A stretch of DNA of 58,288 nt, filler included, from an uncultured bacterium (GCA_964449065.1; 3 parts of 3 records of this genome joined end to end with filler, not necessarily neighbours in it); one strand, 5' to 3'; numbered from the whole stretch's first letter, positions 18,818-38,818 are shown. Notes: generated from the sequence alone by a model not told the origin. Numbers and translations: made by a program.

Positions 18818-19426
18818 CTAAAAAAACCAATTTTTACCGCTGAAAAACCGGTCATAACTTGCGTCGGGCTTTTGGTTGAATCTCCAGACGAAAAATAAGT
18901 CGCCATTGCTGTTGATTCCGTTTGAACCATCGTAAGGCACAGAGAAGTTCGTTGGATGCCAATCGCCGTTGTCGCTATCGGGGCCCGCTCCGGCCAATAC
19001 CCCATACGTGCCGCCATTATTAGAACAATCTCTATCCTCATAGGAATAAAAAACACCGCGGGCGAAGGGATCGACTGGAATGGAAGAAATGTATGATACA
19101 GGAGTGGTTAAAACTTGATAAATTTGTCCGCTAAAATGGTTTTCGCCCGTGCCGACATGATCCAGGCCGACTCTGGAAGGCCGAACGCCAAACCATCTTC
19201 CTTTAAAAGTACATTCAGGAGAACCTCCATCGTTTCCATCAATCAACCACAATCCGGTATCCATATTGAAGATGCGAATTTGATCACGCAACATACGGAT
19301 ATCCGCCTTGGCGCGTGCGGTTTTTGCTTTAATCTGCGCGTTTAAGAAATTAGGGACTGCTATGGCAGCCAGTATCCCGATTATGGCGACAACGATTAAC
19401 AGTTCGATCAGTGTAAATGCCCTCAT
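18818..19426 (-). CDS. Prepilin-type N-terminal cleavage/methylation domain protein
   Basis: A|FTLIELLIVVAIIGILAAIAVPNF class III signal. Confidence 0.92.
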   Translation of the reverse strand: MRAFTLIELLIVVAIIGILAAIAVPNFLNAQIKAKTARAKADIRMLRDQIRIFNMDTGLWLIDGNDGGSPECTFKGRWFGVRPSRVGLDHVGTGENHFSGQIYQVLTTPVSYISSIPVDPFARGVFYSYEDRDCSNNGGTYGVLAGAGPDSDNGDWHPTNFSVPYDGSNGINSNGDLFFVWRFNQKPDASYDRFFSGKNWFF

Positions 19427-19665: not shown

Positions 19666-19676
19666 GAGCGCTTCGC

Positions 19677-19832
19677 TTATCGGGTAGATTTGAGTTGGTG
19701 GATCTTTGCATTAGCTGGCTGCATGCCGTAGAAACTGAAGCGCTCCGCGGCTTCGTTGGCGATGATATACGGGATGCCACCCGGCATTTTGGTGGATTTA
19801 ATGGGCGCGGTGATGTATTTGGATTGGCTCAT
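19677..19832 (-). pseudogene. 5' fragment of a POT/PTR family peptide transporter
   Basis: [22 protein letters not shown] (ExxERFxxYG signature), then 14 unrelated codons and a stop; has its own RBS. Confidence 0.8.
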
Positions 19833-19857
19833 ACTACTTCCTTCTTCAGTAATATAT

Positions 19858-20274
19858 TTAGATATCTTCAAGTTTGTTCAGCAATTGACGTGCCGTTATG
19901 ATAGGGATTTTTTCGATTTCGTGCAGGGAAAGCAAATGCTTTTTATCGCCTGTAACGATAAAATCCGCTTTCCCATGAATTGCAGTGGCGATAATCCAAT
20001 TGTCATCTGAATCCTTCGAATATTGAACCGGTGTTAATTCTTGAACAATGTGTGCCTTGGAATTGATCAGTTTGACGAGTTGTTGAACTTCATTTTGTCG
20101 AATATATTTCCGCATTTTTTCATAATTTGAAACACGGATTCATTCATCAATGATCTCCTGTGATATCACAAGATCATACTTCATTTTAATCCAGGCTTGA
20201 TAAATCTGATCGGGTGGAGTGTTGCGGGTAATCAGAGAACTGATAAATATGCAAGTATCAAGTACGATCCGCAC
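19858..20274 (-). pseudogene. PIN-family toxin with premature TGA
   Basis: GTG start MRIVLDTCIFIS..; in-frame TGA at 20140-20142; frame continues to DSDDNWII..ADFIVTGDKKHLL. Confidence 0.85.
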
Positions 20275-20494
20275 GGGTAACCTGTATTGCTTCCTCAAAG
20301 GTGAGTTCTATTTCGTTTTGATCGTATTGCTGATTTCGTGTTTTTATGCTTTCAACCGTCAGTTCAAACAATTTGCTTTTGACGGCATCCTCAACGAAAT
20401 GAGAAAACGCCTCTTCGCCAATATCATTGCTGCCCAAGTAATCTTGTAGGGCTTGGTCCACTTCATCGGAAACCGTCACAGACCATTGTCTCAT
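20258..20494 (-). CDS. Ribbon-helix-helix antitoxin
   Basis: 78 aa with WSVTVSDEVDQAL RHH pattern; overlaps the PIN gene start. Confidence 0.75.
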   Translation of the reverse strand: MRQWSVTVSDEVDQALQDYLGSNDIGEEAFSHFVEDAVKSKLFELTVESIKTRNQQYDQNEIELTFEEAIQVTRADRT

Positions 20495-20587
20495 TTTCTA
20501 GCGTCCTTCTTTCGTATCATTCCAAAAGCATTATAGAAGAATAGAATAGTCATGCAAATATTAATTGAATCTATAAAGCGTATAACT

Positions 20588-22417
20588 ATGAACTACAAAT
20601 CGTTAAAAGAATGTGTTGCTGATTTAGAGCGGAACGGACAATTGATTCGCATTGAGCAGGAAGTGGATCCCAACTTGGAGGCGGCGGAGATTCACCGGCG
20701 GGTGTTCCAAGCGGGCGGACCCGCGGTCTATTATGCAAACGTAAAAGGTTCCCGCTTTCCGATGGTGAGTAATCTATTCGGAACCAAAGAACGGGTCCAT
20801 TTTATCTTTCGAAAAACGCTGCGTGCGGTTGAACGTGTTGTTGCCATGAAGGTTGATCCCATGCAGTATATGTTCAAGCCGTGGGAATATCTATTGGCGG
20901 CAAAAACCGCAATCACCATGCTGCCCAGGCCGGCATGGTCAGGCCCGGTCTTGCAGAATCAATGCAGGATATCGGATATCCCACAGCAAAAATCATGGCC
21001 GGATGACGGCGGCGCTTTCCTGACCCTGCCCCAAGTTTATACCGAAGAGCCCGGAACCACCAACGCGATGAAATCCAACTTGGGGATGTACCGCATTCAA
21101 CTTTCCGGTAACGAGTATGAGCCGGATAAAGAAATTGGGATGCACTATCAAATTCACCGCGGTATTGGTGTGCATCATGCCAAAGCGATTGAATTGGGAG
21201 AACCGCTCAAGGTGAACATATTCATTGGCGGGCCTCCCGCGATGAATGTGGCCGCGGTTATGCCCTTGCCGGAAGGGCTTTCAGAAATCATGTTTGCCGG
21301 CGCGTTGGGTGGAAGAAACATACCGTTGCGGCGCGAGAAAGGGAAACTGCCGATTCATGTCAATGCGGATTTCTGCATTACCGGAACAGTCGATCTTCAT
21401 AAACGGAAGCCGGAAGGTCCGTTTGGCGATCATTTAGGCTATTACAGCTTGGCGCATGATTTCCCGGTGTTGAATGTGGAGAGGGTCTATCACCGCAAAG
21501 ACGCGATTTATCCGTTTACGGTTGTTGGCAGGCCGCCGCAAGAAGACACCATGTTCGGGGAGTTGATCCATGAATTGACCGGGGATGTGATTCCCACGGT
21601 ATTGCCGGGAATTAAAGCGGTTCACGCGGTGGATGCTTCGGGTGTTCATCCTCTCTTGCTGGCGATCGGCAGCGAGCGGTATGTGCCGTATGAAGAACGA
21701 AGACGGCCGCAAGAATTGTTGACCCAAGCCCATGCCATTTTGGGGCAAGGACAGCTATCTCTTGCTAAATATTTATTGATGGCTGCCGATCAAGATGACC
21801 CGCATTTGGATATACACGATATTGAAGCGTTCTTTGCGCATATTTTGCAGCGGGTGGATTGGACACGCGACCTGCACTTTCAAACCTGCACCACCATTGA
21901 TACGCTGGATTACACCGGCAGCGGTTTGAATGAAGGCTCTAAAGTAGTGATAGCGGCGGTGGGGAATCCAAAACGTGAATTGCCGATTGAGATGGATTCG
22001 GAACTTGATTTGCCGGATGGTTTTAGCAATCCAAAATTATGTATGCAGGGAATATTGGCGGTGCAGAGTCCCAAGCATGAAGATCATGATGATGCCGCCA
22101 ACCGGTTTTGCAATTATTTTGATAAAAATCATGCGATCAACCAATTTCCGTTGATTCTGCTTGTGGATGATTCGGATTTTTGTGCCCGGACGCTGAACAA
22201 CTGGATCTGGGCGACATTTACACGTTCGAACCCGGCGATGGATATCCACGGAATCGGCGCGTTTGTTGCTCATAAACATTGGGGATGCCGTGGATCAATG
22301 GTGATAGATGCCCGGTATAAGAGTTATCAGGCACCCCCTCTAATTGAAGACCCGGCAGTTACGAACAAGGTAGATGCATTGGGGGCTGCTGGCGGTCCGT
22401 TGCATGGAATTATTTAG
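20588..22417 (+). CDS. UbiD family (prFMN-dependent) decarboxylase
   Basis: NLGMYRIQ, EGPFGDHLGYYS, VGRPPQED and IDTLDY motifs. Confidence 0.92.
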   Translation: MNYKSLKECVADLERNGQLIRIEQEVDPNLEAAEIHRRVFQAGGPAVYYANVKGSRFPMVSNLFGTKERVHFIFRKTLRAVERVVAMKVDPMQYMFKPWEYLLAAKTAITMLPRPAWSGPVLQNQCRISDIPQQKSWPDDGGAFLTLPQVYTEEPGTTNAMKSNLGMYRIQLSGNEYEPDKEIGMHYQIHRGIGVHHAKAIELGEPLKVNIFIGGPPAMNVAAVMPLPEGLSEIMFAGALGGRNIPLRREKGKLPIHVNADFCITGTVDLHKRKPEGPFGDHLGYYSLAHDFPVLNVERVYHRKDAIYPFTVVGRPPQEDTMFGELIHELTGDVIPTVLPGIKAVHAVDASGVHPLLLAIGSERYVPYEERRRPQELLTQAHAILGQGQLSLAKYLLMAADQDDPHLDIHDIEAFFAHILQRVDWTRDLHFQTCTTIDTLDYTGSGLNEGSKVVIAAVGNPKRELPIEMDSELDLPDGFSNPKLCMQGILAVQSPKHEDHDDAANRFCNYFDKNHAINQFPLILLVDDSDFCARTLNNWIWATFTRSNPAMDIHGIGAFVAHKHWGCRGSMVIDARYKSYQAPPLIEDPAVTNKVDALGAAGGPLHGII

Positions 22418-22482
22418 ACCGGTTTCATCCAATCTTAATATTCAATGATTATTTTGTTAAAAATTTAGAATGGAAATGTTGA

Positions 22483-23040
22483 ATGACGAAACAAGGATTT
22501 ACGTTGATTGAATTGCTGATTGTAGTAGCGATTATCGGCATACTCGCAGCGATTGCGGTGCCGAATTTCCTGAACGCGCAGGTGCGGGCTAAAATCGCCC
22601 GGGCTGAGGCCGGTCAAAAAACCTTTGCCGACGCGCAGATGATGTACCGGTTGGATAACGGCGCATTCATTCCTCATATTGGGCATCCGGTTTGGCAAAA
22701 CAAATATCTCACCACCCCGATCTCTTACATCTCATCGACTTCGGCTTTGCAAGACCCGTTTCAGAATGAGTTTGGCGACAGTCAAACCTGGCAATGGGCG
22801 CATGGGGAACTGCACCAAGACCCGGTTCGTGACCATCCTCATTTGGTAACGCAATACTTCAAGAACATCGATGGATGGGAACAGCCGTTAGCGAACAATC
22901 CCAAAGAAGCGTATGTGATAATCAGCGCGGGACCGGATCAGGCGTTTAGCCTGTTTCAAAACGGTAAGTTCGGTCATCCGCTCTATGCGCCATCGAATGG
23001 GCTGAATAGTTTTGGAGATGTTGTTCGGTTAGGGTTTTGA
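22483..23040 (+). CDS. Prepilin-type N-terminal cleavage/methylation domain protein
   Basis: QG|FTLIELLIVVAIIGILAAIAVPNF; paralogue of 18818-19426. Confidence 0.92.
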   Translation: MTKQGFTLIELLIVVAIIGILAAIAVPNFLNAQVRAKIARAEAGQKTFADAQMMYRLDNGAFIPHIGHPVWQNKYLTTPISYISSTSALQDPFQNEFGDSQTWQWAHGELHQDPVRDHPHLVTQYFKNIDGWEQPLANNPKEAYVIISAGPDQAFSLFQNGKFGHPLYAPSNGLNSFGDVVRLGF

Positions 23041-23070
23041 TATTGATACTTTCACCATCAATTGATCAAA

Positions 23071-23110
23071 CGGATTTGGCTGCTTTTCTTCCTTCTTTAA
23101 CATCAATCAA
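23071..23110. repeat. 40-bp copy of an internal segment of the DUF3368 toxin gene
   Basis: 39/40 identical to 28860-28899. Confidence 0.9.
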
Positions 23111-23283
23111 GATGGCGTGCCGCCCGCAGACGGCATGTGCGGATGCGGAACCAGTTTGAGGTTGAAGAAAGTAATCTCAGTTCATTACTGCCGGTCACGT
23201 TGGGATAAAGGACTACAAATATTCCGTCCAAAATTCTACCCTCAACTTTGCTTTCATTTTATCTTCATCTAATTTGTACTAAC

Positions 23284-23387
23284 CGCCCACTTTTGGGCAC
23301 TACCCGTTTCCGGGCAGAAGCATTCATGCATAATCTATTATTAGTTAATACTCTTTATCGCATACATTTCATGCCCACTTTCGGGCA
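23284..23387. promoter_or_regulatory. Three palindromic operator/enhancer-like sites
   Basis: CGCCCACTTTTGGGCA (23284), TACCCGTTTCCGGGCA (23301), TGCCCACTTTCGGGCA (23372). Confidence 0.55.
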
Positions 23388-23463
23388 AACTAGCGATATA
23401 ATTTTGAAGCGGTAAATAATGATAAATCAATGATAATATTATTCTTAGCTTTGTTTAACTGAT

Positions 23464-23480
23464 CTAGCATTCATTTTGCG
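23464..23480 (+). promoter_or_regulatory. Degenerate sigma-54-like promoter
   Basis: CTAGCATTCATTTTGCG: AG-N10-GC, close to the groES motif but with AG in place of the conserved GG. Confidence 0.4.
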
Positions 23481-23597
23481 ATTAAAATTATTTGAGCGAA
23501 TCGAAGTTTTTGGTAGTATTTTATGATATTATAGAAATAAATCAGAGATTGAAAAAACACCGTAAATGGATTTATACTATTGGTAAGGTGAAAACGG

Positions 23598-24929
23598 ATG
23601 AAATCACAGTGCACGGCAACATTATCAGCAATCATTCTACTCTCATTCAGCATTTGTGTATCATCATTCTCAGCCCCGATTTTGGATTATCAAATGCCGG
23701 TGTACCGGGTTGAGATTACCCCTGGTGCATGGGATGTGGACAAGATTCAATACGAAGCAGGATTGCGGGATATTCCCATAGACGTGATTGAAACCGAAAA
23801 CGGTACCCAATGCGTAACGGAGTTAAACTGCGAATATACCGAAGTCTATAAACTGCGCGACCGCATGAAATTGGCTGGTTTCGATGCAGCGATGAAAACA
23901 GAAATCGTGGATTATGAAGAAGCCAAGCAGCAAGAGATGTTTCCACTCGAAGCATTCGCGACTAATATGGATTTAGGCGAGTATAAAGCATTACCGGATA
24001 CGGTAGCAATCGAAGAAATAAACAATATTGAAACCGAATTCAAAGCCTTTGAAAACCAGCCGGATATCACAACCCAAGCATTGGTGGATTTCTTAAAAGG
24101 GAAAATGCCCGCCCTCTTGTATCAATCCGAAAAGGGAAACCCAAAAGCAACCTATCTAATTGGGTCTTATTATTATCTGCGCGGCTTGGCGGAAACCAAG
24201 AAACGGATGGAGAACTATCAGCAAGTGGGTTTTCGCCTCCAACAGTTCGAGCCGGTGACCAGTGAAGAGAACCGTTCCTACCTAACTGCTCTACAATACT
24301 ATCAATCCTGCGCCAAACAAAAATCTCCCTTGCAAGAAAAAGCGCTTTACCATTGCGCCGCTAGTTTGTATGGTATCCGTAATGTAGGAGATAAATTGGT
24401 GCGGATACCTCAATCGCTGAACGCCTACGAGACCTATGTTACAAAATATCCAGAAGGTAAGTGGGCAAAACGAGCTGCCATGAATATTGTAGGATTGGAA
24501 TTTGTAATTCACCGTCTGAATCGAGATCATCCAATCGAACCTGCACTTACTTTAGCGCAAGAAATACTATTTGAAGGTAAGGATGCAAATACACTGGGAT
24601 ATGAAGAATTGCGCTCTGCCCTCATGATGATGGAAATGTTGTGGGAAAATGGTAATTGGGAAGCATCACTGACCATTTATAATTCAACATTTAATTCAAT
24701 AAATTTTGTTAATCTCAAAGAATCATTATATTCTACATATTCATATGCAACTGAAATAGCAGCTTCTATCTATCGTTTTAAAATGGAAGATAATGAAAAT
24801 GCATCAATATTAATTGATAATATATTACGTAATTGCAAAAAAGATAATCATTACCTAATGGGAAATGCAGAAACGAATATGGCCCATTTAAGATCAACAT
24901 TAGAATTTCTTAATAATAATAATAATTAA
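23598..24929 (+). CDS. Exported TPR-like protein, possible N-terminal SPOR-like domain
   Basis: Signal peptide; TPR-type motifs KATYLIGSYY, ALYHCAASLY and AYETYVTKYPEGKWA. Confidence 0.75.
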   Translation: MKSQCTATLSAIILLSFSICVSSFSAPILDYQMPVYRVEITPGAWDVDKIQYEAGLRDIPIDVIETENGTQCVTELNCEYTEVYKLRDRMKLAGFDAAMKTEIVDYEEAKQQEMFPLEAFATNMDLGEYKALPDTVAIEEINNIETEFKAFENQPDITTQALVDFLKGKMPALLYQSEKGNPKATYLIGSYYYLRGLAETKKRMENYQQVGFRLQQFEPVTSEENRSYLTALQYYQSCAKQKSPLQEKALYHCAASLYGIRNVGDKLVRIPQSLNAYETYVTKYPEGKWAKRAAMNIVGLEFVIHRLNRDHPIEPALTLAQEILFEGKDANTLGYEELRSALMMMEMLWENGNWEASLTIYNSTFNSINFVNLKESLYSTYSYATEIAASIYRFKMEDNENASILIDNILRNCKKDNHYLMGNAETNMAHLRSTLEFLNNNNN

Positions 24930-24947
24930 TAATGGAGGAAAACTAAA

Positions 24948-25370
24948 ATGAAAGCATTCCTGAAAGTCTTTTTGTTTTTAAATTTCTTCTATTCTTCGGG
25001 TTTTTGTCAAGAAATGCAAAGCAACAATATTGTATGTTGGGAATTAATGGATTCCTCAGAGTTATCTTCTACCATTGGTAATGGAGGTAATGTTATTTGT
25101 TGGACTATTTCTGATTGCTTCCCATCAACAAGTAATTTACCCTGTGCCTCATACATTGGAATTGACGGTTTACCTAAATGCGATCAATATGCGTCAGGAG
25201 GCACACCGATTTGGACATGTCCCTCAATTCCAGCTTATACGTATTGTTTTTATTCGACAATAGAATGCTTTTGGATTGATCCATGTGGCTTTGATAGAGA
25301 TACTTATGCAAATTGTAAGTTAAGAGCAAGAATTTTGGCTTCTTCAAATACTTATTGTTGGAATTTATAA
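24948..25370 (+). CDS. Secreted Cys-rich precursor protein with double-glycine-like leader motif
   Basis: GGAGG RBS; hydrophobic signal; MDSSELSSTIGN; 12 Cys, 10 of them after the motif. Confidence 0.75.
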   Translation: MKAFLKVFLFLNFFYSSGFCQEMQSNNIVCWELMDSSELSSTIGNGGNVICWTISDCFPSTSNLPCASYIGIDGLPKCDQYASGGTPIWTCPSIPAYTYCFYSTIECFWIDPCGFDRDTYANCKLRARILASSNTYCWNL

Positions 25371-25396
25371 AATAATTTTTAAAGAAGGATAAAACG

Positions 25397-26344
25397 ATGA
25401 AAGTAACGATGAAAGTATTTCTAAATGAATTAATAACATTGTTCATTATTCTTTGTTTTTCTTCAAGTTCATTTTCAAACGATATATTGACTAAATGGGA
25501 AAATAGTAAAATTTTACTCGAAAACGCAATCCCTTGTAAAATACATACCCTATCCACATCCACTCGAACTTTTCCTCAACGAACAAACACAATTTCTGAG
25601 AATTCTATATTATGTACTAAAGATAGATATAAATATATAAAATCACAATTATCCGGCAGTCTAGATGTAGACCAACTTATACGCATGTTTGATTCAAGCA
25701 ATGAGAATTCTAAGTCAAATTCGAAAATTATCTACACCAAAAATAAATCGTATCACCAGAATAACTACAAAGACTTATTATATAGTGATATACGTGTTTC
25801 TAAAACAGATACCGGATTTCAAAAACCGGATGATCATCCATTGATTCCAATAGAAGTATTTGTAAATGGAAAAAAGGCATTTGACTATCATAATCCTCAA
25901 ACAGTAAATACTAATGGTTTAGAAACTGAGTACTTATTTACTCGTCCATTCAAAGAAATGTCTGAAATATATGTGTATCGTAAAATTATATATGATAATC
26001 AAAATTCAAGTTTCCCAAAAATAATTGAAACTGGATTTTTAAAAAAATCAGATCCGTCACACTTGATTCCGGATCAAAGATACACAATTGAAGTCAATAA
26101 AGATAATATTATAGGTTACGATTCATTTTTATATGAAGAGTTAAAAATAAATAATATTAGCAATCAAACAGAAACAATTAGAAGTTGTAATGTACAAATA
26201 AATGATATTGAAACAAACATGAGGATATTACCTGAAGATTTTTGTTTATTATTACAAAAAGGTCAAAAATATATTGAATATGATTCCAATCAAAATAGAA
26301 CAGAAGTGATTGCAGAAGAAGATATTATCATTGAAGCCCAATAG
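25397..26344 (+). CDS. Exported hypothetical protein (AT-rich, beta-rich, possibly LolA-like)
   Basis: 315-aa ORF with AAGGA RBS and signal peptide (..CFSSSSFS); fold guess is weak. Confidence 0.7.
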   Translation: MKVTMKVFLNELITLFIILCFSSSSFSNDILTKWENSKILLENAIPCKIHTLSTSTRTFPQRTNTISENSILCTKDRYKYIKSQLSGSLDVDQLIRMFDSSNENSKSNSKIIYTKNKSYHQNNYKDLLYSDIRVSKTDTGFQKPDDHPLIPIEVFVNGKKAFDYHNPQTVNTNGLETEYLFTRPFKEMSEIYVYRKIIYDNQNSSFPKIIETGFLKKSDPSHLIPDQRYTIEVNKDNIIGYDSFLYEELKINNISNQTETIRSCNVQINDIETNMRILPEDFCLLLQKGQKYIEYDSNQNRTEVIAEEDIIIEAQ

Positions 26345-26348
26345 ATTA

Positions 26349-27736
26349 ATGAACCTTTTTTTCATTTGTTTTTCATACTTGCAAATTATCCAAAGTTCCT
26401 TTGCGCAGAATATCACTTACCCGGTCTACCCCTCCTGCGGGGCGTTGGGCGTGGTGATAACCGCCAATGAACTCGGTATCCCGTTGACGTATGAGAAATT
26501 AGCCCGGCAGGATGACATGCAAAAAGATACTCTAAATTTTGCGGAAATCATCGAGGGGAGCAAGTCTTACAACATCGAATTTGTAGGCGTCAAAGGCGGC
26601 GTTGAACCGCTCAAAAATTCTTCTCCGCCCCTTATTGTTGCTGTTACACCGGAGCATTTTACCGTCATCCGTGATATACAGTCCGATGGTGTCATCACCA
26701 TTGAAAATTCCGGCATCGAGTCATTCGAATCGTGGAAGGATTTTCTTCCCAAGTTCCGCCAAGCCGCTCTTATAGTTCAGGATTATACCCCTCCTGATGA
26801 TCTTCCTGACACATTTCTCTTCTACACCCAAACCGCCGATTTCGGCTGGGTGCCCTCGCAGCCGAGGATTGAATATTCGGGGGGAAAAACTGGTCTACTC
26901 AACCCGTTACCATCAAGCAATTGTCTACCAGCTGCGGATGTACTTCGGTTGAAATCAAACCGAAAACCGCGCAATTCGGTGAAGAAATTGTGGTGAAAGT
27001 GGTGGTGGACAAACGCATCAATACCGGAAAAATATCCGAAAAGGCTGTCGTAGAAATAAGCCGGGAAGGTGCCCCGCCACAAGCCGTTGAGTTGGTGGTA
27101 AAAGCCCAAGCAGGTCACCCGTTTGAATTCCAACCATCTTCCATCCGAAAAACCGTATTACAGGGGAAACCAGTAGACAGTATTACAGTTTATTACGACA
27201 CCATCACCCCGGCCGAAAGTGATTTGTGGAACATCACTTCAATTCGTACAAACGCCAATCCTCAACTCATAATTCCTGCAATCCATGACAACAGCATTCA
27301 AGCCGATTTTGAGGTCCCCAATGAAAACGGTGTTTATGAGGACGCCATTGTCGTACAGTTAGAACGAAATACCGGGCAAACCGCTACCGTAGAAATCCCG
27401 GTTGAACTGGAAGTACATGGCGACGTGATTACGGATGTGCAATCCCTATCGTTCGGAGCGGTGAAAAACGGTCAAATCAAAGAACGAGTATTGGAATTGC
27501 GTTCGATCTCACGAACACCATTTACCATTGACTCCTACGAAACTTCATTACCCGTTGCGGTTACGCTTCCTAAAAAAAGCACAAAAGCGGACAGGCAAAA
27601 CGTTAAAATTATTGTAGATGGATCAAAGTTTACACCTAACCGTTTGCACAAAGGGGATTTGCGATTCATTCTGAATTCAAACGGTCAAACACAAACATGT
27701 AAAGTTGAAGTTAACCTTCTTCGCGGCAATTTTTAA
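26349..27736 (+). CDS. Exported C39-peptidase-like domain fused to DUF1573/Ig-like domains, split by a -1 frameshift
   Basis: Signal peptide; SCG and PLIVAVTPEHFTVI in frame 0; KNWSTQPVTIKQLSTSCGCT (DUF1573) continues in the -1 frame from G6A5 at 26879-26889. Confidence 0.75.
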
Positions 27737-28338
27737 GTCGAATCCGGTCTTTCTGTAACAGATTTTTCCGGTTTGGTAGGCAACCGCGTTTTATTAATGG
27801 ATTTTATAATCGCTTCTTCATTTTCATAAGCATAAATCGTTGGTGCCTTGTTTACCATCAAGCCTCCGGTATCCGCCGTAGGACCGTAGGTGCTATAAAG
27901 CGGTTTGCCCAACATCCGCAAAAGATAAGTAAGTTGTCCCCGATGATGCGCCGAATGAGCAATCCGCCGCATCATTACCCAGGCGCGGGTGCGGGGTTCG
28001 CCAAAAAAGATGGTATTCTCTTCCCACCAGTCTTGCTTCTTTTCTTTCAGCATATCCAACCGCTTTCGCGAATCTTCATGATACCGAAGGATGAATTCAT
28101 AACGGGTCTCTGTTTCAGGCAAAGGAGAAGACTGCACATCAATGCCAAACATATTCTTAAACCACAAATCCTCACTGATACATTGGTGAATCATCTGTTC
28201 CAGCAAATTTCGGCCTCGCGGATCATGGGAATTCGGTCTTACTAACAAATCCTTATCCTCAAACTCGTTCCATATCGCAAGTGTTTTTATTCGCTCTGTC
28301 TTATAAGTATCCATAAAAAATTGATAGCGGTTTGTCAT
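27733..28338 (-). CDS. DinB family protein
   Basis: EQMIHQCISE and AHSAHHRGQL motifs. Confidence 0.9.
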   Translation of the reverse strand: MTNRYQFFMDTYKTERIKTLAIWNEFEDKDLLVRPNSHDPRGRNLLEQMIHQCISEDLWFKNMFGIDVQSSPLPETETRYEFILRYHEDSRKRLDMLKEKKQDWWEENTIFFGEPRTRAWVMMRRIAHSAHHRGQLTYLLRMLGKPLYSTYGPTADTGGLMVNKAPTIYAYENEEAIIKSINKTRLPTKPEKSVTERPDST

Positions 28339-28357
28339 AGATTCATCCTCTCTCTAT

Positions 28358-28391
28358 AAAAAGATGGGGCAAGATTTTCATGCCCCATCTT
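28358..28391 (-). terminator. Terminator downstream of the displaced proA 3' end
   Basis: AAGATGGGGCA..TGCCCCATCTT hairpin with T tract on the minus strand. Confidence 0.8.
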
Positions 28392-28430
28392 ACATTTTAC
28401 AAATCAATCGGCTCGAAGGCGGCTCGCAGG

Positions 28431-28606
28431 CTACTCCCGAATTTCCCCACTGCCGAAGACGATAAACTTCTCACACGTAAGCTCTTTTTGCCCCATCGGG
28501 CCGCGGGCGTGGAGTTTATCGGTCGAGATACCCATCTCGGCACCTAAGCCGTATTCGCCCCCGTCCGAGAAACGGGTGGATGCGTTCACCATCACCGATG
28601 ACGAAT
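28431..28606 (-). repeat. Duplicated 3' end of proA (direct repeat)
   Basis: 28432-28606 matches 29487-29661 with one internal synonymous mismatch; stop TAG versus TAA. Confidence 0.97.
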
Positions 28607-28707
28607 TGCGGGAGAATATTTCCTGCCTTGCTTTAAATCTATGAATCACTTTCTTTCGTCTATTGTCGATTAAGATATGTATACAGCCAAAAGCATTATC
28701 GATTATT

Positions 28708-29193
28708 TCACCTTGTATCCCGCAACAACTTTCCATACTCGGAATCCTTTAATCGGAATCCTTGAGAAATAAGTTCATTTAAAGAGGCTTCAAATTCTGA
28801 AGGCTTATTTCGATAATACCGCAATAAAATACCTATTGTACCGGTTATCGGAATGCCAGCGGATTTGGCTGCTTTTCTTCCTTCTTTATCATCAATCAAA
28901 AGTAAGTTTGCATTCTTTTCATTTGCAAGAGAAATCGCTTCCGCTTCACCTGCATCTACATGAGTCATCAAAAAGGCTGCTGAATTTATATCTGTTACAG
29001 ACGTTTGAATGATCCAGTCCGATTCAAGTACTTCATGCTTTCCTTTTCTATTTCTAACATCCGAAACAATTTCATTATATACAGCATTTGGTATGTGTAT
29101 GGTTCCAAACAACTTTTGTAGGATATAAAGCCGTTGGATTCTTGCTAGTGCAATAATTGGTGATGAATTAGAAACAACAATCAACTGGTTCAC
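28708..29193 (-). CDS. DUF3368-family PIN toxin
   Basis: [31 protein letters not shown] and GTIGIL motifs. Confidence 0.9.
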
Positions 29194-29453
29194 GGTATTA
29201 TTTGGTTTAGTGTATTTAGATCAGATAATGCATCTTCAGCAGTAAAATGAATCGGGATTTCTTTTGCGTTTAAGAGTTGGATCATTTCCCATTTATTTTC
29301 AAAGCCCGCAAGTTCTTTTGCCTTCCCTAGAGAAAGAGTCCCATCCCGGTACAGTTCAACCGCCATCGTTTTCCGGATAAATTCCGGCAATTGCTCAAAC
29401 GGAATATCAAGTGCATTGATTGTTGATTCCGGCAATTCCAAATTCAAATTCAT
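29190..29453 (-). CDS. UPF0175-family antitoxin
   Basis: AVELYRDGTLSLGKAKELAG; 4-nt overlap with the toxin gene. Confidence 0.88.
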   Translation of the reverse strand: MNLNLELPESTINALDIPFEQLPEFIRKTMAVELYRDGTLSLGKAKELAGFENKWEMIQLLNAKEIPIHFTAEDALSDLNTLNQIIP

Positions 29454-29485
29454 CTTATACCTCTAGTTGAAAGGGTAGGACAATA

Positions 29486-30769
29486 TTACTCCCGAATTTC
29501 CCCACTGCCGAAGACGATAAACTTCTCACACGTAAGCTCTTTTTGCCCCATCGGGCCGCGGGCGTGGAGTTTATCGGTCGAGATACCCATCTCGGCACCT
29601 AAGCCGTATTCGCCCCCGTCCGAGAAGCGGGTGGATGCGTTCACCATCACCGATGACGAATCCACTTCGCGCAAAAACTTGTTGGCGTTGGCGTAATCGT
29701 TGGTCACAATCGATTCAGTATGGCTGGATGAATGCTTTTCGAGATGATCGATGGCATCCTCGATGGAATCCACAATCTTTAACGCCACGATCAGATCAAG
29801 ATATTCGGTATCCCAATCTTCATCCGCAGCCGCCTTGATATCGGGGTGCAGTTCAACCGTCTTGGCGCATCCTCTCACTTCCACATCATTCTGCTTAAGT
29901 TCATGCAGCAGGCTGGTCAAGAAATCGCCCGAATGCGCTTTGTGAACAAGAAGTGTTTCGGCGGCGTTGCACACGCCCGGACGCTGCACTTTCGCGTTTA
30001 CACAGATGGCTTTGGCCATTTCGGGGTCAGCGAATTCATCCACATACACATGACAGTTGCCGTCATAATGCTTCAAGACCGGGATCGTCGCCATATCCAC
30101 CACCGCTTCAATCAAAGACTTGCCGCCGCGGGGAATGATCACATCCAATAACCCGTTCAACTTGCACATATACTTAACCGCTTCGCGGTCGGTGGTATTG
30201 ATGAATGAGACTGCCGCTTCCGGCAATCCGTTGGCTTTGAGGGAATCGCGCATGATATCGGCGAGCACAATGTTTGAGTGAATCGCTTCCGAACCGCCGC
30301 GCAGCAGGCAGCCGTTCCCGGATTTGAGGCAAAGCGCAGAGGCCTCCATCGTCACATTGGGGCGGGATTCATAGACCAAACCAACCACGCCAAGCGGCAC
30401 CCGCATCTTGCCGACTCGAATGCCGCTGGGGCGAACCGTCATATCGTTGATTTGCCCGACTACATCCGGCAGGGCCGCCACTTCTTCCAGCATTGAAATC
30501 ATGCCATTGAGTCGTTTGTCATTCAGGGTCAAACGGTCCAGCATGGCTTTGGTCAAGCCTTTTTCTTCGCCCGCCGCCAAATCGAGTTGATTTTGGGTTT
30601 GGATTTTTTCTTTCTCATCCATAATGCGCTTGGCGGCATCCAGCAATACCTCGTTTTTTTGCTGGGTCGGCGTTTTGGCAATTATACGGGATGCATTTTT
30701 CGCCAAGCGCGCGGTTTCTTGAACAAACGCTTCGATATTTTCAATTTGTGGAGACGTTACTGTGCTCAT
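29486..30769 (-). CDS. proA: Gamma-glutamyl phosphate reductase
   Basis: VPLGVVGLVYESRPNVT, IPRGG, CNAAETLL and [22 protein letters not shown] motifs. Confidence 0.98.
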   Translation of the reverse strand: MSTVTSPQIENIEAFVQETARLAKNASRIIAKTPTQQKNEVLLDAAKRIMDEKEKIQTQNQLDLAAGEEKGLTKAMLDRLTLNDKRLNGMISMLEEVAALPDVVGQINDMTVRPSGIRVGKMRVPLGVVGLVYESRPNVTMEASALCLKSGNGCLLRGGSEAIHSNIVLADIMRDSLKANGLPEAAVSFINTTDREAVKYMCKLNGLLDVIIPRGGKSLIEAVVDMATIPVLKHYDGNCHVYVDEFADPEMAKAICVNAKVQRPGVCNAAETLLVHKAHSGDFLTSLLHELKQNDVEVRGCAKTVELHPDIKAAADEDWDTEYLDLIVALKIVDSIEDAIDHLEKHSSSHTESIVTNDYANANKFLREVDSSSVMVNASTRFSDGGEYGLGAEMGISTDKLHARGPMGQKELTCEKFIVFGSGEIRE

Positions 30770-30904
30770 GCTTCACCTCTTAATTTGCGATTCAGGCAGT
30801 ATTCTAGCAAAAATATTCTTTTTCGGCAAATTTCTGAAAGGAGTTGTTATTGTTGAAATATTTGTGATAAAATAAAGCCATAACATTCGATTCGAGTACA
30901 AAAA

Positions 30905-31120
30905 ATGAAGAAAATCACTCACGCAAAAATTGATCCGCAAGGCACGATTCATTTTCAAGAGCCTGTTGAGATATCCCATCCAACAGAGGCATTAGTATTT
31001 TTTTTAAATGAACATGAAGATACAGAAATAAAGCAAAAGGCAACGAATATTCCAAATTGGATTGGAAAGTATTCCAGCCAAGGACAAACGATGGATGATC
31101 GCCGGACTATTTATGAGTAG
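30905..31120 (+). CDS. Putative antitoxin (DUF104/AF2212-like)
   Basis: 71-aa ORF immediately upstream of a PIN gene; beta-strand N-terminus. Confidence 0.6.
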   Translation: MKKITHAKIDPQGTIHFQEPVEISHPTEALVFFLNEHEDTEIKQKATNIPNWIGKYSSQGQTMDDRRTIYE

Positions 31121-31128
31121 ATCAAACA

Positions 31129-31599
31129 ATGGCATCCAAAATTACACTGGATTCAAATATTCTTTTAAGAGCCGCGGATCATACCTCCCCAAGTTTTACT
31201 CCTGCAAAATCAGCATTGACTTTAATGAGTCGGTATCTTATTGACGTCATTATACCACCTCAAGTGATTTATGAATGTTGGGTTGTTCTAACCCGTCCAA
31301 TAGCCTCAAATGGGATTGGGCTATCTACTGATGAAGCCGTTTCTTTTATTGAAGAAACCAGAAGATGCTATTCTTTTCTTCCAGATCCAATCGGTTTGCT
31401 GGATCGATGGTTAGATCTCGTTACCCGCCATGATATAAAAGGGGTAAAAGCGCATGATGTTCGATTGGCCGCTTGGATGCTGGAAACCGGTATCGATACC
31501 TTATTAACTTTTAATACTTCAGATTTTCATCAAATGCCTATTCACGTCATCCATCCCGATAATCTGAAAAAATGGCTGAGTGATATTGCTGATGATTAA
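31129..31599 (+). CDS. VapC/PIN-domain toxin
   Basis: LDSNILLR, QVIYE, AHDVRLAA and LLTFNTSDF motifs. Confidence 0.9.
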   Translation: MASKITLDSNILLRAADHTSPSFTPAKSALTLMSRYLIDVIIPPQVIYECWVVLTRPIASNGIGLSTDEAVSFIEETRRCYSFLPDPIGLLDRWLDLVTRHDIKGVKAHDVRLAAWMLETGIDTLLTFNTSDFHQMPIHVIHPDNLKKWLSDIADD

Positions 31600-31692
31600 A
31601 AAGAGTTTAGTGAGTAAAAATCCACGGTTGCCTGATCTTAAAGAATTGTTATCATTTTTTAAATCATCAATAAACAATAGAAAGGGGATTGT

Positions 31693-32586
31693 ATGTATTT
31701 AAAGAAGTCTTTTGCCGTTTCATTTGCTCTGCTCATGGTATTTAGTATCGCACAGATGGGGAGGACAGCAGATATTGCAGTCATCATTGTGCAGGATTTC
31801 ATCTTACCGGGTGATGACCCGGCCAACGACCCGGACGCCAAGCAATTTACGTTTGATACAATTGAAATTCAGGATCCGGGATTGTTTGCGTTAATCTCTC
31901 GTATGGAAGAAACCGGGCATAACGCAAAACTATACGGTGCGGATGAATTTGTCGCGAGTGATGTAGAGACGGAAAATGATTTGATTTGGATCACGGAAGA
32001 ACCGCAATCCAGCGCGACCGGTTCCAAGTTTCAAGAAAGCGAAACACCTGTGATCTTTCAAGAGGCGTTCATTATGGATGATATGGGACTGGCCACAGGC
32101 AGCGCGGAATTCGAAAACAATCTCCACACCAATGAACTCCGTGTTCTCAATCCCAATCACCCTATCACGCAGGGGCTGCCGGAAACATTTGTATTCAGTT
32201 TCAACAATGAAGAGACAGGCGAACCGCAAGCGGTAACTGTCGTCAGTTTGCTCAACAATAGTAATTTGACCGGTGTGGGAGAAGTCGTGGTTGATGCCCC
32301 AGCGGTTTACAATACCGATATGGCAGAATCCCCCATTTTCAACGACGTGCCGGTCGTGATCGCGGTGGATGAAGGAACGGAAGTCAGTTCGTCTGTCACC
32401 GCCAATGCCCGCTGGGTGATGTTCGGCTATTCGGAAAGCAACATCAGCGAAACACCGGAATTCGGCCCGGGAGCTGAAGTGTCAACCCTGGCGTTTTTAA
32501 ATGACCAAGGCTGGCAATTGCTGGATCAAACCATCGCATGGGCTTTGAGTGAAACCGTTGAAGTCTCCGATTGGCAAATATTCTAA
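31693..32586 (+). CDS. Secreted acidic protein, glutamine-amidotransferase/ThuA-like fold possible
   Basis: Signal peptide; HPITQGLP and LLDQTIAWA; ends VEVSDWQIF. Confidence 0.75.
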   Translation: MYLKKSFAVSFALLMVFSIAQMGRTADIAVIIVQDFILPGDDPANDPDAKQFTFDTIEIQDPGLFALISRMEETGHNAKLYGADEFVASDVETENDLIWITEEPQSSATGSKFQESETPVIFQEAFIMDDMGLATGSAEFENNLHTNELRVLNPNHPITQGLPETFVFSFNNEETGEPQAVTVVSLLNNSNLTGVGEVVVDAPAVYNTDMAESPIFNDVPVVIAVDEGTEVSSSVTANARWVMFGYSESNISETPEFGPGAEVSTLAFLNDQGWQLLDQTIAWALSETVEVSDWQIF

Positions 32587-32610
32587 GCACCAAATCATAA
32601 AGTTGGTATT

Positions 32611-32643
32611 AAACAGAGTGAGGTTTATGCTTCACTCTGTTTT
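32611..32643 (+). terminator. Rho-independent terminator
   Basis: AAACAGAGTGA..TCACTCTGTTT hairpin. Confidence 0.8.
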
Positions 32644-32707
32644 CATTTATGAGAGGTTCATCTATAATGACAAATCATACTAACATGCTATGGGATAAAT
32701 AAACCGT

Positions 32708-34051
32708 ATGAATTCCATATTCACCCTCTTTACATTTTTATTGATTCTTTATGGCGGTTTTCCTTTAATTTCCCTATCCGCGCCAAAGATTCTCGATGAA
32801 ATACCTGTTGACCAAGTCTGGCCGGGCCATCGTGTCGGGTTTGATCTACTCACGCATCAAAACAAGCAGTATGCGGCCTATTACAATGCTGAACGCCAAA
32901 TGGTCGTTGCATCCCGCGCAATCGGCGATGCGACGTGGGAATACCATCCCCTGCCCTCTTTCATCGGGTGGGATTCACACAACTACATCACAATGGCCTT
33001 TGACCGGGATGATCATCTGCACGTCAGCGGCAATATGCATGTGGATCCGCTCGTTTATTTCCGCGGCGAAAAGCCCAACGATATCCATTCGCTCAAAGCC
33101 GTTCACCGCATGACCGGGAAGAATGAAGAGCGGGTCACCTATCCCCGCTTTCTATACAACGCGGAAGGCGACTTGCTCTTTATTTACCGCGACGGCTCCA
33201 GCGGCAACGGGCACCGCTATATCAACCAGTATGACGAGAAATCCAAAACCTGGTCGCGGTATTTGGATGAACCCTTGTTGGATGGCCGCAAACACGACAT
33301 GAACGCATACCCAACCTCCATTCGCCGCGGCCCGGATGGCTATTACCATCTCGTGTGGATGTGGCGCGACACGCCCGATTGCCGCAGCAATCACGATATC
33401 TCTCACGCCCGTAGCAAAGATATGATTCATTGGGAAACCGTATCCGGCGAATCGCTGCAATTGCCCATTACCCCGGATCACGAAAACACCTTCGTTGATC
33501 CTGTCCCCCCAAATGAAGGATTGATCAATATGGGGTTTGGCTATGGCTTCGATCAACAGAACCGCGTTCTCGTTCATTACCACAAATACGATGAAGGCGG
33601 CAATAGCCAAATTTATATCGCGCGCTGGGAAGAGGATAAGTGGGTTCACCATCAAATCAGCGACTGGGACTACCGGTGGGATTTTGGCGGCGGCGGTTCC
33701 GTTCCTTGCGATGTGAGAGGCAGTTCTGTCCGCAAACTGCCGAACGGTAAGTTAGCGCAGTCGTGGTATCACGCTGAATTCGGCAGCGGAACGTGGGAAC
33801 TGGACCCGCAATCATTGGAAATCACTGGCGGGATTGATCTGCCGGAAACGATTCCACCATCTTTACGCAAGCTACAATCGTCCTTTCCGGGAATGCAGGT
33901 CAACTGGGAAAGCAGCCGTGGAGATAGACCGGATGCAAACGTGCGCTATATGCTGCGCTGGGAAACGTTGGGAGTAAACCGGGACCGTGCCCGGGAAGGT
34001 ACAATCCCTGAGCCGACTATGCTAAAACTTTATAAACTCTCATCGAAATAA
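32708..34051 (+). CDS. Secreted BNR-repeat (BNR_4-like) beta-propeller protein
   Basis: WDSHNYI, LHVSGNMH, TYPRF, YRDGSSGNG and ARSKDMIHW (Asp-box) motifs. Confidence 0.85.
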   Translation: MNSIFTLFTFLLILYGGFPLISLSAPKILDEIPVDQVWPGHRVGFDLLTHQNKQYAAYYNAERQMVVASRAIGDATWEYHPLPSFIGWDSHNYITMAFDRDDHLHVSGNMHVDPLVYFRGEKPNDIHSLKAVHRMTGKNEERVTYPRFLYNAEGDLLFIYRDGSSGNGHRYINQYDEKSKTWSRYLDEPLLDGRKHDMNAYPTSIRRGPDGYYHLVWMWRDTPDCRSNHDISHARSKDMIHWETVSGESLQLPITPDHENTFVDPVPPNEGLINMGFGYGFDQQNRVLVHYHKYDEGGNSQIYIARWEEDKWVHHQISDWDYRWDFGGGGSVPCDVRGSSVRKLPNGKLAQSWYHAEFGSGTWELDPQSLEITGGIDLPETIPPSLRKLQSSFPGMQVNWESSRGDRPDANVRYMLRWETLGVNRDRAREGTIPEPTMLKLYKLSSK

Positions 34052-34071
34052 AACTGGTTGGGGTAAGTCTT

Positions 34072-34950
34072 ATGGCTGCTAATATATATTTTTCTTGCTT
34101 GCTTCTTTTCTCACTGATTGCAATCAGTTTAAACATATTTGCACAAGATGAGTCTTCCATACCGGTTCAAACACACACGGTCAAATTGACAAAAAACGCT
34201 GTGGACGAATCCGCCGGCAATCTTCCCTGCTTTAAGATTGAAACCCCAGTGGCAATCTATTATCTTGAAAAAGAGGGTGCAGGGCTCTCCAGCATGATCG
34301 ATAAAGACGGCAACGATTGGATTGGCTTTCATCCCAAACCCGGCAGCGGCGCTGGTGGGGAGTACCGCGGCTTTCCCAACGCGGTGCATCAACAGGATGG
34401 CAGTTTCTTTCATCCGAAAAATAAAGGAACCGATCCATCCACAGTCGAAGTGATCTTTGAAAGCCCGGAGCATGTAACCTTTCAAGCAACCTCAAAAAAC
34501 ACAACATGGCAGGCGCGTTGGGATTTTTATTTCACTCACTGCACCTTCACCATGACCCGCATGCCCAGCGGATATCAGTATTGGGTTTTGTACGAAGGCA
34601 CTCCCGGCGGTGACTATGATGACCTGGATTGGTGGATGACTTCCGCCGTGAATGAAAAGCAACCGCTAACAGTCAATCACGAAGGCGACATTCCCGCCCC
34701 CGAATGGATCGCGTTTGGGGATTTGGATATTGAGCGTTCCTTGTTTTTACTCCATCATGAAGATGACGAACACATCGACAAATTTTATCCGATGCAAAAG
34801 AAGATGACCGTCTTCGGCTTCGGCCGTGATGAACTTACCAAGTATTTGGATACCGTGCCGCAACGTTTCTCTATCGGATTTTTGGAAACGACAGAACACC
34901 GAATCATTTCAGAGTTTGTAATGAAAATCAGAACGACAAATTTACAATGA
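34072..34950 (+). CDS. Exported hypothetical protein
   Basis: 292-aa ORF with signal peptide, co-oriented between the BNR protein and the sulfatase. Confidence 0.75.
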   Translation: MAANIYFSCLLLFSLIAISLNIFAQDESSIPVQTHTVKLTKNAVDESAGNLPCFKIETPVAIYYLEKEGAGLSSMIDKDGNDWIGFHPKPGSGAGGEYRGFPNAVHQQDGSFFHPKNKGTDPSTVEVIFESPEHVTFQATSKNTTWQARWDFYFTHCTFTMTRMPSGYQYWVLYEGTPGGDYDDLDWWMTSAVNEKQPLTVNHEGDIPAPEWIAFGDLDIERSLFLLHHEDDEHIDKFYPMQKKMTVFGFGRDELTKYLDTVPQRFSIGFLETTEHRIISEFVMKIRTTNLQ

Positions 34951-34972
34951 CATCAAAATATTCTTTGAGGAG

Positions 34973-37945: not shown

Positions 37946-38021
37946 CTTCCACTTTCCCTCAACTGTCAGTCCTATCCGTCCCTGGAATGGAGCACATTGC
38001 CTTCCGTGGCGAGCAGTTTAT

Positions 38022-38049
38022 GTATCGGCCATAAACGTAAAAAGCTTTA
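38022..38049 (-). promoter_or_regulatory. Sigma-28 (FliA/SigD)-like promoter
   Basis: TAAAGCTT..GCCGATAC on the minus strand (TAAA-N16-GCCGATA), 76 nt before the ATG at 37945. Confidence 0.55.
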
Positions 38050-38250
38050 TGAGAGAAAATGGAAACCGGCAAAAATTGGTCGAGATACTCAAAAAAAATA
38101 TGTTCAAAAAATATTGATTTTTCAAAGATTAGTTCTTGACAACCAACCCCAACAAACGGTATCCTATATCAAAATACTAGATAAAGATGTTTTGAATACC
38201 AATCAGAATATCGTGTGCTCCTGTTGGAGTAGTTGAAAGGAGATTTTGTT

Positions 38251-38781
38251 ATGTTAAGGCATTTGCCGAAAGTTTTCTGTGTATTGGGTTTGTTTATGGT
38301 GATGGGATTGGTTAGTGGCGTGGAGGTTTCTGCTCAAGAAACACCTCCAGAAACACCGGTAGAAACGCCGACCAATACACCAACGCCGGTACCTCCAACG
38401 AACACTCCAACTCCAGCGGAATCACCTGGAGAAACCCCGGTTGAAACCCCAACACCGGTTCCGCCAACCAACACGCCGGTACCGCCTACACCCACACCGG
38501 AAACCGCACCGGAAACACCAACACCGGTTCCGCCAACTGCTACACCAACACCAACACCAATCCCACCGACCAATACTCCGGTACCTTCCGAACCGGGATC
38601 GGGTGACTTGGATGGCGATGGTGAAACCACCGAAGAAGATGTAACCAACATTCTTGACTTATTCGTCTCCGGTGAAGATCCAACTCCGGAACAATTAGAA
38701 GCAGCCGACTTGAACGGCGATGGTGTCCTGACACCGGGTGACGCCCAGGCGCTCTTCGAGTTGCTCAACTCGGGTGGATAA
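38251..38781 (+). CDS. Secreted Pro/Thr-rich protein with C-terminal dockerin-like domain
   Basis: AAGGAG RBS; signal peptide; PTNTPTPVP repeats; GDLDGDG..ADLNGDG..D paired EF-hand-like loops. Confidence 0.85.
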
Positions 38782-38818
38782 TCCGAATTAAAAGTAGTAT
38801 GATTTAAAGTAGTAATAT

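Follow-up and report, generated by a model that had tools for sequence, protein, structure and literature searches.

Processing of double-glycine leaders by C39 peptidases is taught as a cytoplasmic step coupled to export by an ATP-binding cassette (ABC) transporter. The locus described here lies at positions 23598-27736 of the window, a stretch of 58,288 nucleotides from an uncultured bacterium (GCA_964449065.1) that joins three contigs with N linkers and holds the locus on contig C58 (window 19666-39198). The locus encodes a small Cys-rich precursor and a C39 domain that is followed by DUF1573 and immunoglobulin (Ig)-like domains, not by ABC membrane or nucleotide-binding domains. Comparison with related loci makes it likely that, in this family, the precursor is exported by the Sec pathway and its double-glycine-type propeptide is cut in the periplasm by the exported C39-DUF1573/Ig protein, without an ABC transporter. 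The window locus itself is probably a partly decayed copy of the recurring cassette, or is served in trans.

The peptidase-containing ABC transporters (PCAT), also called AMS proteins, for ABC transporter maturation and secretion, include LahT, PCAT1 with its substrate CtA, and ComA. They share with the cassette the C39 fold and the spacing of the catalytic triad, which is Cys27, His101 and Asp117 in LahT versus Cys30, His103 and Glu119 in the fourth gene of the locus. The leaders are alike in their hydrophobic residues at -12, -7 and -4, in Gly at -2 and in the joining of a conserved leader to a variable core. Unlike these exporters, the cassette peptidase lacks ABC and membrane domains; it has a signal or anchor of its own at the N-terminus, and DUF1573/Ig as its fusion partner. 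The cassette precursor differs in having a Sec-type signal ahead of the leader and a relaxed residue at -1, and the Gln six residues before the catalytic Cys is mostly absent from the peptidase; the LahT structure, in the available part of its description, questions the role of this Gln. The PCAT peptidase is cytoplasmic, whereas the window protein and all 14 intact homologs have a hydrophobic N-terminus, which points to export. In the 14 homologs this stretch precedes the Cys, and no 19-residue mean exceeds 1.72 after it. Signal and export predictions are based throughout on a hydropathy heuristic.

Bufferins are Sec-exported RiPPs (peptides synthesized by ribosomes and modified after translation), the signal-bearing, Cys-containing precursors of which are modified in the cytoplasm by dedicated enzymes. 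Unlike them, the cassette has no modifying enzyme but does have a second leader and a protease. The nearest precedent is FapD of the Pseudomonas Fap amyloid system, a Sec-exported C39 protein without an ABC transporter that is active in the periplasm and requires its catalytic Cys (PMC5557850). The available part of that report states that the target of FapD is unclear and that the Fap proteins are without canonical C39 sites; the cassette, unlike Fap, has a recognisable leader that co-occurs with the peptidase. Neither a FapF pore nor Asn/Gln-repeat subunits were found among the window open reading frames (ORFs) at the locus. In giant Omnitrophota proteins, C39 domains lie near predicted signal peptides and are proposed to act in protein processing (bioRxiv 10.1101/2023.11.21.568195). 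There, unlike in the cassette, the C39 domain sits inside giant proteins, and the available part of the preprint mentions neither a small precursor nor a leader or DUF1573. The literature search found FapD alone as a periplasmic C39 protein and no description of this cassette, including the combination of DUF1573 with C39, most subscription papers lying beyond its reach; whatever else it brought up dealt with PCAT exporters, selenoproteins, giant genes, toxin surveys or unrelated topics.

Leader and C39 domain across the cassettes

The core of the cassette, as it recurs at the loci compared, is made up of a DUF1573-type Ig protein, a partner of about 300 residues and a hypervariable Cys-rich protein with a hydrophobic N-terminus. 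In the predicted proteins of these loci, C39 domain and leader come and go together, as a pair added to this core. In a screen of 55 loci, ORFs on the same strand qualified if they had a hydrophobic N-terminus and 7 or more Cys, the leader motif being unused in the selection. (Here G000 is the genome under study, G008, G020 and the like are other genomes, L-numbers are loci and P-numbers are homologous proteins.) The 22 loci with a cassette-type C39 domain gave 17 precursors from 16 loci, and the 13 DUF1573 cassettes without a fused C39 gave 16. The double-glycine motif was scored at seven positions in the 45 residues after the hydrophobic stretch. Its terms at -4, -7 and -12 and its GG, GA or GS ending agree with the available parts of two papers (PMC6363468, PMC10885120).

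At least four of the seven positions are matched in 15 of the 17 precursors beside a C39 domain versus none of the 16 from cassettes without it, and at least five positions in 7/17 versus 0/16. The leader thus accompanies C39 in homologous loci, a check that the original prediction had set for itself. Within the genome's own phylum, the counts at four or more positions are 9/9 and 0/16. When the worst positive of each genome is set against the best control, the split is 5/5 versus 0/9 (Fisher p=0.0005), and in G000, G008 and G020, which hold both types of cassette, the leader splits in the same way in each. Precursors of C39 loci also have a longer stretch ahead of their first Cys (median 23 versus 11.5 residues, p=0.02). 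Four candidates had been removed by hand as evidently spurious or unrelated (L023:5020, L102:1210, L105:1186 and L115:3970). L082, whose C39 part is off the contig and whose precursor scores 6, was excluded; the two precursors of L094, where the DUF1573 gene is cut by the contig end and the C39 status is uncertain, were added by hand; and L041, with an unrelated, unfused C39 gene 1.6 kb away, was kept as a control.

An intact paralogous cassette lies on contig C103 of the same genome (G000:C103:4708-7732). Its 147-residue precursor has a hydrophobic N-terminus, the segment LSFDEMENLTGG and a 10-Cys core, and the leader matches at 7 of 7 positions; a 325-residue partner (LolA-like by a sub-threshold hit) and a fused C39-DUF1573 protein come next. 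A Pfam search of the genome, which is 86.7% complete, finds two C39 domains only, both of this type and neither fused to an ABC transporter. Similar cassettes occur in the relatives G008, G020 (three loci), G025, G029 and G033, and in Planctomycetota records (L095-L097, further loci of G061, and L130). The two-domain profile at 1e-27 found loci in 3 of the 121 genomes of the Planctomycetota sampling, and in a 41-genome class sample it matched only in G061; the cassette is either patchy in this phylum or too divergent for two-domain profile searches.

The catalytic Cys is present in all 15 aligned C39 domains and the His in 14, one having Arg in its place, and most members have an Asp about 15 to 23 residues after the His. 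Most are 14-28% identical to the first sequence of the alignment. The C39 fold, which had been predicted, was recovered in two ways. The family profile matches LahT, PCAT1 and ComA in the PDB (structures 6mpz, 4ry2 and 3k8u; E 2.5e-12 to 1e-7), and HlyB too. The AlphaFold2 (AF2) model of the homolog L102, not of the window protein, has a mean predicted local distance difference test score (pLDDT) of 89.5 and a predicted template modelling score of 0.82; it matches the C39 domains 7n87, 6mpz and 3k8u with a root-mean-square deviation of about 3 Å, and PapD-like Ig folds as well.

Several points count against the family-level mechanism. Six of the 22 C39 loci had no precursor in the automatic screen: none came from L045, L099, L100, L106 or L110, and that of L130, which scores 5, was found later by eye. 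The threshold of four was picked after the scores had been seen, and related genomes are not independent. Two of the 15 passing windows (L097 and the second precursor of L046) lie off the likely cut site. The Gln at Cys-6 is found in only 1 of 15 family members, and L111 has one partner for two precursors.

Some variants were observed in passing. L103, L105, L106 and L110 represent a planctomycete form that has membrane helices and a rhodanese domain after C39, in place of DUF1573; its precursors have weaker leaders (3-4/7). Genes for extracytoplasmic function (ECF) sigma factors lie directly upstream of the cassettes at L043:8457-10915 and L023:6765-7522, and the C39-DUF1573 protein of L043 starts with an anti-sigma-like segment and a membrane helix, which hints at regulation or signalling. 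In G000, the C39-less cassettes on C68, C6 and C167 (L086, L088 and L111) have DUF1573, partner and Cys-rich protein together with a GT-C-like membrane gene or an Ig-repeat protein; on C6, the precursor frame appears broken near its start.

The copy in the window

The features of the window locus are as follows.

23598..24929, plus strand: gene 1, 443 residues, predicted secreted protein like tetratricopeptide repeat (TPR) proteins; optional accessory, also found ahead of other variable secreted cargo genes
24948..25370, plus strand: gene 2, 140-residue precursor with a predicted signal at about 1-20, pro-region 21-45 and a 95-residue core with 10 Cys
25047..25082, plus strand: degenerate double-glycine-type leader, gene 2 residues 34-45, predicted cut after Gly44-Asn45
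25397..26344, plus strand: gene 3, 315 residues, predicted secreted and beta-rich, placed where related cassettes have their LolA-like gene
26349..26996, plus strand: first part of gene 4, predicted signal and C39 domain (Cys30, His103, Glu119), with a 42-residue tail mostly out of frame
26879..26889, plus strand: frameshift site, a G6A5 run between C39 and DUF1573, from comparison with P0001
26873..27736, plus strand: second part of gene 4, 287 open codons that encode DUF1573 (SCGC motif) and additional Ig-like domains, without a signal peptide of its own
24680..26345, no strand: AT-rich patch over gene 2, gene 3 and about 80 codons at the end of gene 1, a likely swapped-in payload

As predicted, the four co-oriented reading units (the last spanning 26349-27736) are tightly spaced, with 18, 26 and 4 nucleotides between them, and each begins with a hydrophobic, signal-like stretch (best 11-residue Kyte-Doolittle means 2.80, 2.02, 2.86 and 2.05). 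Promoter and terminator scans were at chance level (21 versus 16.6 +/- 3.7). The NCBIfam scan of the window proteins gave no match above cut-off, and the Pfam scan gave none at all for genes 1-3.

The leader segment MDSSELSSTIGN, residues 34-45 of the 140-residue gene 2 product, has the residues that were claimed for it at -12, -8, -7 and -2, with Asn at -1. The core that follows does contain the 10 Cys of the original prediction, in 95 residues rather than about 97, and two further Cys lie upstream (all positions: 20, 30, 51, 57, 66, 78, 91, 100, 107, 113, 123 and 137). A hydrophobic, signal-like segment stands ahead of the leader, unlike the arrangement in N-terminal leaders without a Sec signal. 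The segment aligns with the leaders of the family, and residues 31-45 are the best site in the protein under a profile built from 15 of them. Met at -12 and Leu at -7 are hydrophobic as required and Thr at -4 is not, whereas all three positions fit in C103. The Gly-Asn at -2/-1 falls outside GG, GA or GS; C103 and most relatives have GG and others GR or GD, and since Arg and Asp occur at -1 in relatives, Asn there is not disqualifying by this comparison. Gene 2 is preceded by a good Shine-Dalgarno sequence, GGAGG. It has no family match and no usable Atlas hit and forms a singleton cluster; its core matches none of 33 other cores at E<0.01, and the searches found no DNA around close orthologs.

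The window copy adds evidence of its own to the adverse side. Taken alone, the gene 2 leader matches 4 of 7 positions, one point above the control maximum, and is not above chance (shuffle p=0.24); it has Thr at -4, Asp at -11 and Asn at -1. Under the family profile the site scores -0.25 bits (p=0.18), a value equalled by 183 of 911 signal-bearing ORFs of the genome, while the seven best relatives score 10.7-21.1 bits when each is left out of the profile. Residues 27-35 of the pro-region nearly repeat residues 48-56 at the start of the core over nine residues (0/150 shuffles as similar; p=0.017 with an 8-residue window), and part of the pro-region may therefore be a local duplication. Gene 3 has no detectable similarity to any of 31 positional equivalents. 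Finally, C39 (26349-26996) and DUF1573/Ig (26873-27736) are in different frames, the second being -1 relative to the first, with the switch at the G6A5 run. As the gene 2 leader is weak by its own sequence, the case for it rests on context, and cleavage at Gly44-Asn45 is judged less likely than not. The idea of an exported C39 enzyme cutting the leader of a Sec-exported precursor is thus carried by the family loci, and the window copy, frameshifted and with a degenerate leader, is a poor exemplar of it.

The C39 domain of gene 4 is recognised by Pfam (Peptidase_C39, PF03412; 35 bits versus a cut-off of 22, E 1.4e-8), and the predicted Cys, His and Glu are in place as Cys30, His103 and, at His+16, Glu119, where the triad has Asp. 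The second frame matches DUF1573 (PF07610; 42.7 versus 26.1, E 5.9e-11) and PF22544 (E 2.2e-6, over cut-off). The fusion of the two in one ORF, which the original prediction had assumed, does not exist in the window; it does in the closest homolog P0001, a single ORF of 473 residues with both Pfam domains, and all 14 other aligned members are single ORFs as well. P0001 has three residues, one of them Phe, between Tyr-Ser and Lys-Asn-Trp, where the window has 5 nucleotides, so that gene 4 is a net 4 nucleotides short of expectation and the conserved Phe is lost. Both halves are similar to P0001 (44% identity for the C39 part and 37% for the DUF1573 part) and the second frame is free of stops over 287 codons, hence the break looks recent. 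The frameshifted gene would yield an exported C39 domain without Ig domains. Three Logan contigs from two samples of one study span the run without a gap, extending 4-13 nucleotides past it on the shorter side, where the bridging rule is 31 on both sides; one of the two samples may be the assembly's own source. In one sample's contig (depth 3.95), A26705C turns Glu119 into the canonical Asp found at the equivalent position in P0001 and LahT, a difference that is possibly an error. The population may be mixed at the frameshift site.

The third-position G+C content drops from 0.23-0.57 to 0.07-0.15 near position 24680, stays at 0.14-0.38 across genes 2 and 3 and is 0.62 at the start of gene 4; most blocks flanking the patch have 0.40-0.62, and the genome has a median of 0.56 and a first percentile of 0.26. 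The patch has sharp boundaries. Gene 1 can be aligned with P0011 right to its end, so that recombination between homologous cassettes is the simplest reading and likely swapped the payload.

It is possible to go further and regard the window locus as dead or a mismatched mosaic: the AT-rich payload came in by a swap, the peptidase gene broke afterwards, and the gene 2 product is either secreted without cleavage, as a protein with 12 Cys, or not made. This explanation is a strong contender that stops just short of being probable, and it is compatible with the mechanism being valid elsewhere in the family. The frameshift with its lost Phe, the weak leader, the sharp composition boundaries and the repeat that overlaps the leader all fit it, as does the total of 12 Cys, which is even also if the signal is cut before residue 19. 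It is opposed by the intactness of genes 1-3, of which genes 2 and 3 have good ribosome-binding sites, by the downstream frame, which is still open and 37% identical to P0001 as after a recent break, by the signal, Cys and His retained in the truncated C39 protein, and by the best leader score falling where it is expected, 6 residues ahead of the first core Cys.

Partners and neighbours of the cassette

Genes 1 and 3 had been taken for TPR and carrier-like helpers. Gene 1 has no direct Pfam or NCBIfam match, and its TPR identity is supported through homologs: it is 49% identical to P0011 and related to P0014 and P0018, both of which match TPR_6 over cut-off. A search of 1.84 billion representatives yields 18 members of its family at E<=0.001, and homologs occur in 7 of 35 phylum genomes, G000 included. 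A profile search of the C39 loci finds the family at C58, L023 and L046, and in L045 as a fusion with C39; C103, L043, L044, L048, L081 and the planctomycete C39 loci have no match. It also heads a DUF7689 cargo with a partner (G000:C185, G019:C3), a laminin-G protein and other cargo of no recognised type. As the family heads unrelated cargo and is missing from most C39 loci, it is not a dedicated helper, and gene 1 would be an optional, general companion of variable secreted cargo.

Some of these loci are worth describing. At G000:C185:838-3573, a gene 1 paralog comes first, then a secreted DUF7689 protein, the NC...H pattern of which is papain-like, and then a 231-residue partner. This trio, which resembles a toxin-immunity pair, recurs in G019:C3 (L022), where it adjoins an array like clustered regularly interspaced short palindromic repeats (CRISPR) at L022:3772-6257. 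In L045 (G026:C1241:363-1943), a single ORF fuses TPR repeats with a C39 domain.

Gene 3 is a tentative candidate for a carrier. It has no direct Pfam or NCBIfam match, and the proposal is based on position and on Atlas leads of 0.86-0.90, which are sub-threshold and include LolA-like clusters. PF17131 (LolA_like) is found below cut-off in 2 of 24 positional partners, and the AF2 model of gene 3 (pLDDT 48.9) has no Foldseek match. Partner genes are duplicated together with precursors in the tandem arrays of L046, L094 and L117. A partner-family (LolA-like) gene also occurs at G000:C43:3399-4553, with neither a precursor nor a DUF1573 gene listed nearby.

The cassettes can be compared with polymorphic toxin-immunity cassettes (PMC3482391, as far as its available text goes), with which they share a variable secreted cargo followed by a partner, tandem arrays and apparent cassette swapping; the gene 1 family moreover heads DUF7689 cargo, the NC...H pattern of which is like that of Tox-PL1. 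Unlike these toxins, genes 2 and 3 have no known toxin or immunity domain, and C39 would be a separate maturation enzyme, not a Tox-PLC39 toxin domain.

Around the window cassette, prepilin-type N-methylation genes lie at 22483-23040 and 18818-19426. One of them is upstream of the cassette, an arrangement shared by several related loci, but genes of this type seem to be common throughout these genomes. A 40-bp repeat (97.5%) is present upstream of the cassette (23071-23110) and 1.1 kb downstream (28860-28899), with loose contig ends at the first copy. A 175-bp direct duplication (99.4%; 28432-28606 and 29487-29661) corresponds to the 3' end of what is presumably a proA-like gene. It flanks a PIN-type toxin-antitoxin-like gene pair and resembles an integration scar.

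Maturation pathway and product

From gene order, domains, triad residues, the co-occurrence of leader and C39 domain, and the frameshift, we infer a course of events that includes Sec export of all parts, signal removal, periplasmic cleavage, disulfide formation and partner binding. Signal peptidase would take off the signal of the precursor. The residues at -12, -7 and -4 of the propeptide would then dock on the C39 domain as in LahT, and cleavage would come behind the conserved Gly(-2)-X(-1), with G, R, D, S, A or N as possible residues X. The core would close its disulfides, probably with the help of the CxC motif of DUF1573 and of the MauE-type proteins whose genes adjoin some cassette loci. 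The available parts of two selenoprotein tables (PMC9312934, PMC13188914) give the CGC motif of DUF1573 as UGC, which hints at redox activity. The gene 3 partner would probably bind the cognate core, as a carrier or an immunity factor. The window precursor itself might be cut by the C39 fragment of gene 4 or by the intact paralog on C103, or remain uncut.

Across the family, the cores are hypervariable, with about 95-130 residues and 8-16 Cys; 31 of 34 are net-negative, and 29 of 30 precursors have a Cys within 5 residues of the C-terminus. These properties favour a disulfide-clasped module for recognition or antagonism over a cationic bacteriocin that forms pores. An interaction factor that is exchangeable, anionic and rich in disulfides, acting in antagonism or surface recognition, is the most likely product. 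As for its role, judgement tentatively places antagonism with a cognate partner first and surface display or adhesion slightly behind; some other role is doubtful, and a signal more doubtful still. No RiPP modifying enzyme was found among genes 1-3 with Pfam and NCBIfam, although gene 3 may have an unrecognised activity. As there is no such enzyme, the term RiPP class overstates the case, and prepro-miniprotein maturation system is a better name.

Alternatively, the Cys-rich proteins might be subunits of a surface fibre or coat, with DUF1573 as a PapD-like chaperone and with C39 cleavage triggering assembly, much as FapD is needed for secretion of the Fap amyloid. Such a role for the product is rather unlikely, and the cleavage mechanism would still be compatible with it. 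The PapD-like Ig fold of the L102 model and the FapD precedent speak for it, together with the near-terminal Cys of 29/30 precursors and the fact that several cassettes have prepilin-type genes, GT-C-like membrane genes and Ig-repeat (CarboxypepD_reg) proteins as neighbours. However, the loci inspected showed neither an usher gene nor one for an outer-membrane pore, and the cores are hypervariable. Head-to-tail or amyloid-type repeats were considered as a family trait and rejected, an internal repeat at p<0.05 being present in 2 of 30 precursors.

It is also conceivable that the C39 domain resembles the inactive C39-like domain of HlyB and binds the leader without cutting it, serving as its chaperone or docking site, with the leader as a tag for retention or sorting. 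The scarcity of Gln at Cys-6 (1/15), the Arg for His in one member, the residue at -1, often other than Gly, Ala or Ser, and the match of the family profile to HlyB-type domains would agree with this, but Cys in 15/15 and His in 14/15 despite 14-28% identity, the Asp after the His in most members and the Gly(-2) just ahead of the first core Cys make it improbable.

The least probable explanation, that the G6A5 run is a site of programmed -1 frameshifting or slippage (giving a short C39 protein and the full fusion) or an assembly error in an intact gene, draws on the -1 relation of the frames, on the fit of G-GGA-AAA to the slippery pattern X-XXY-YYZ and on error-prone homopolymers at a site that no contig bridges by the 31-nucleotide rule, but even after a -1 slip or a 1-nucleotide error the product would lack the conserved Phe and be shorter than P0001 by one residue, the downstream structure is unremarkable (-14.8 versus -11.0 +/- 2.6 kcal/mol), the three Logan contigs agree with the window, and the other 14 members are single ORFs.

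Returning to cleavage by an exported C39 peptidase, the adjacency of peptidase and candidate substrate, together with cassettes that have and lack the module as a natural control, makes periplasmic C39 cleavage directly testable. The intact locus on C103 is a better experimental target than the window copy and a possible source of peptidase in trans. The cassettes may well represent a widespread periplasmic pathway, although we would not yet call this probable, in which the C39/double-glycine pair is uncoupled from the ABC exporter and serves as a detachable module. The module would be attached to a DUF1573/LolA-like platform, dependent on Sec, for the folding, activation and delivery of interchangeable disulfide-rich miniproteins, each paired with a cognate partner. 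Bacteria would then have a counterpart of the prepro-peptide systems known from animal venoms and defensins. None of the 19 precursors scanned matches NCBIfam above cut-off. If the mechanism is true, it would give DUF1573 its first role and make accessible a diverse set of disulfide-rich bacterial miniproteins that leader-based mining misses.

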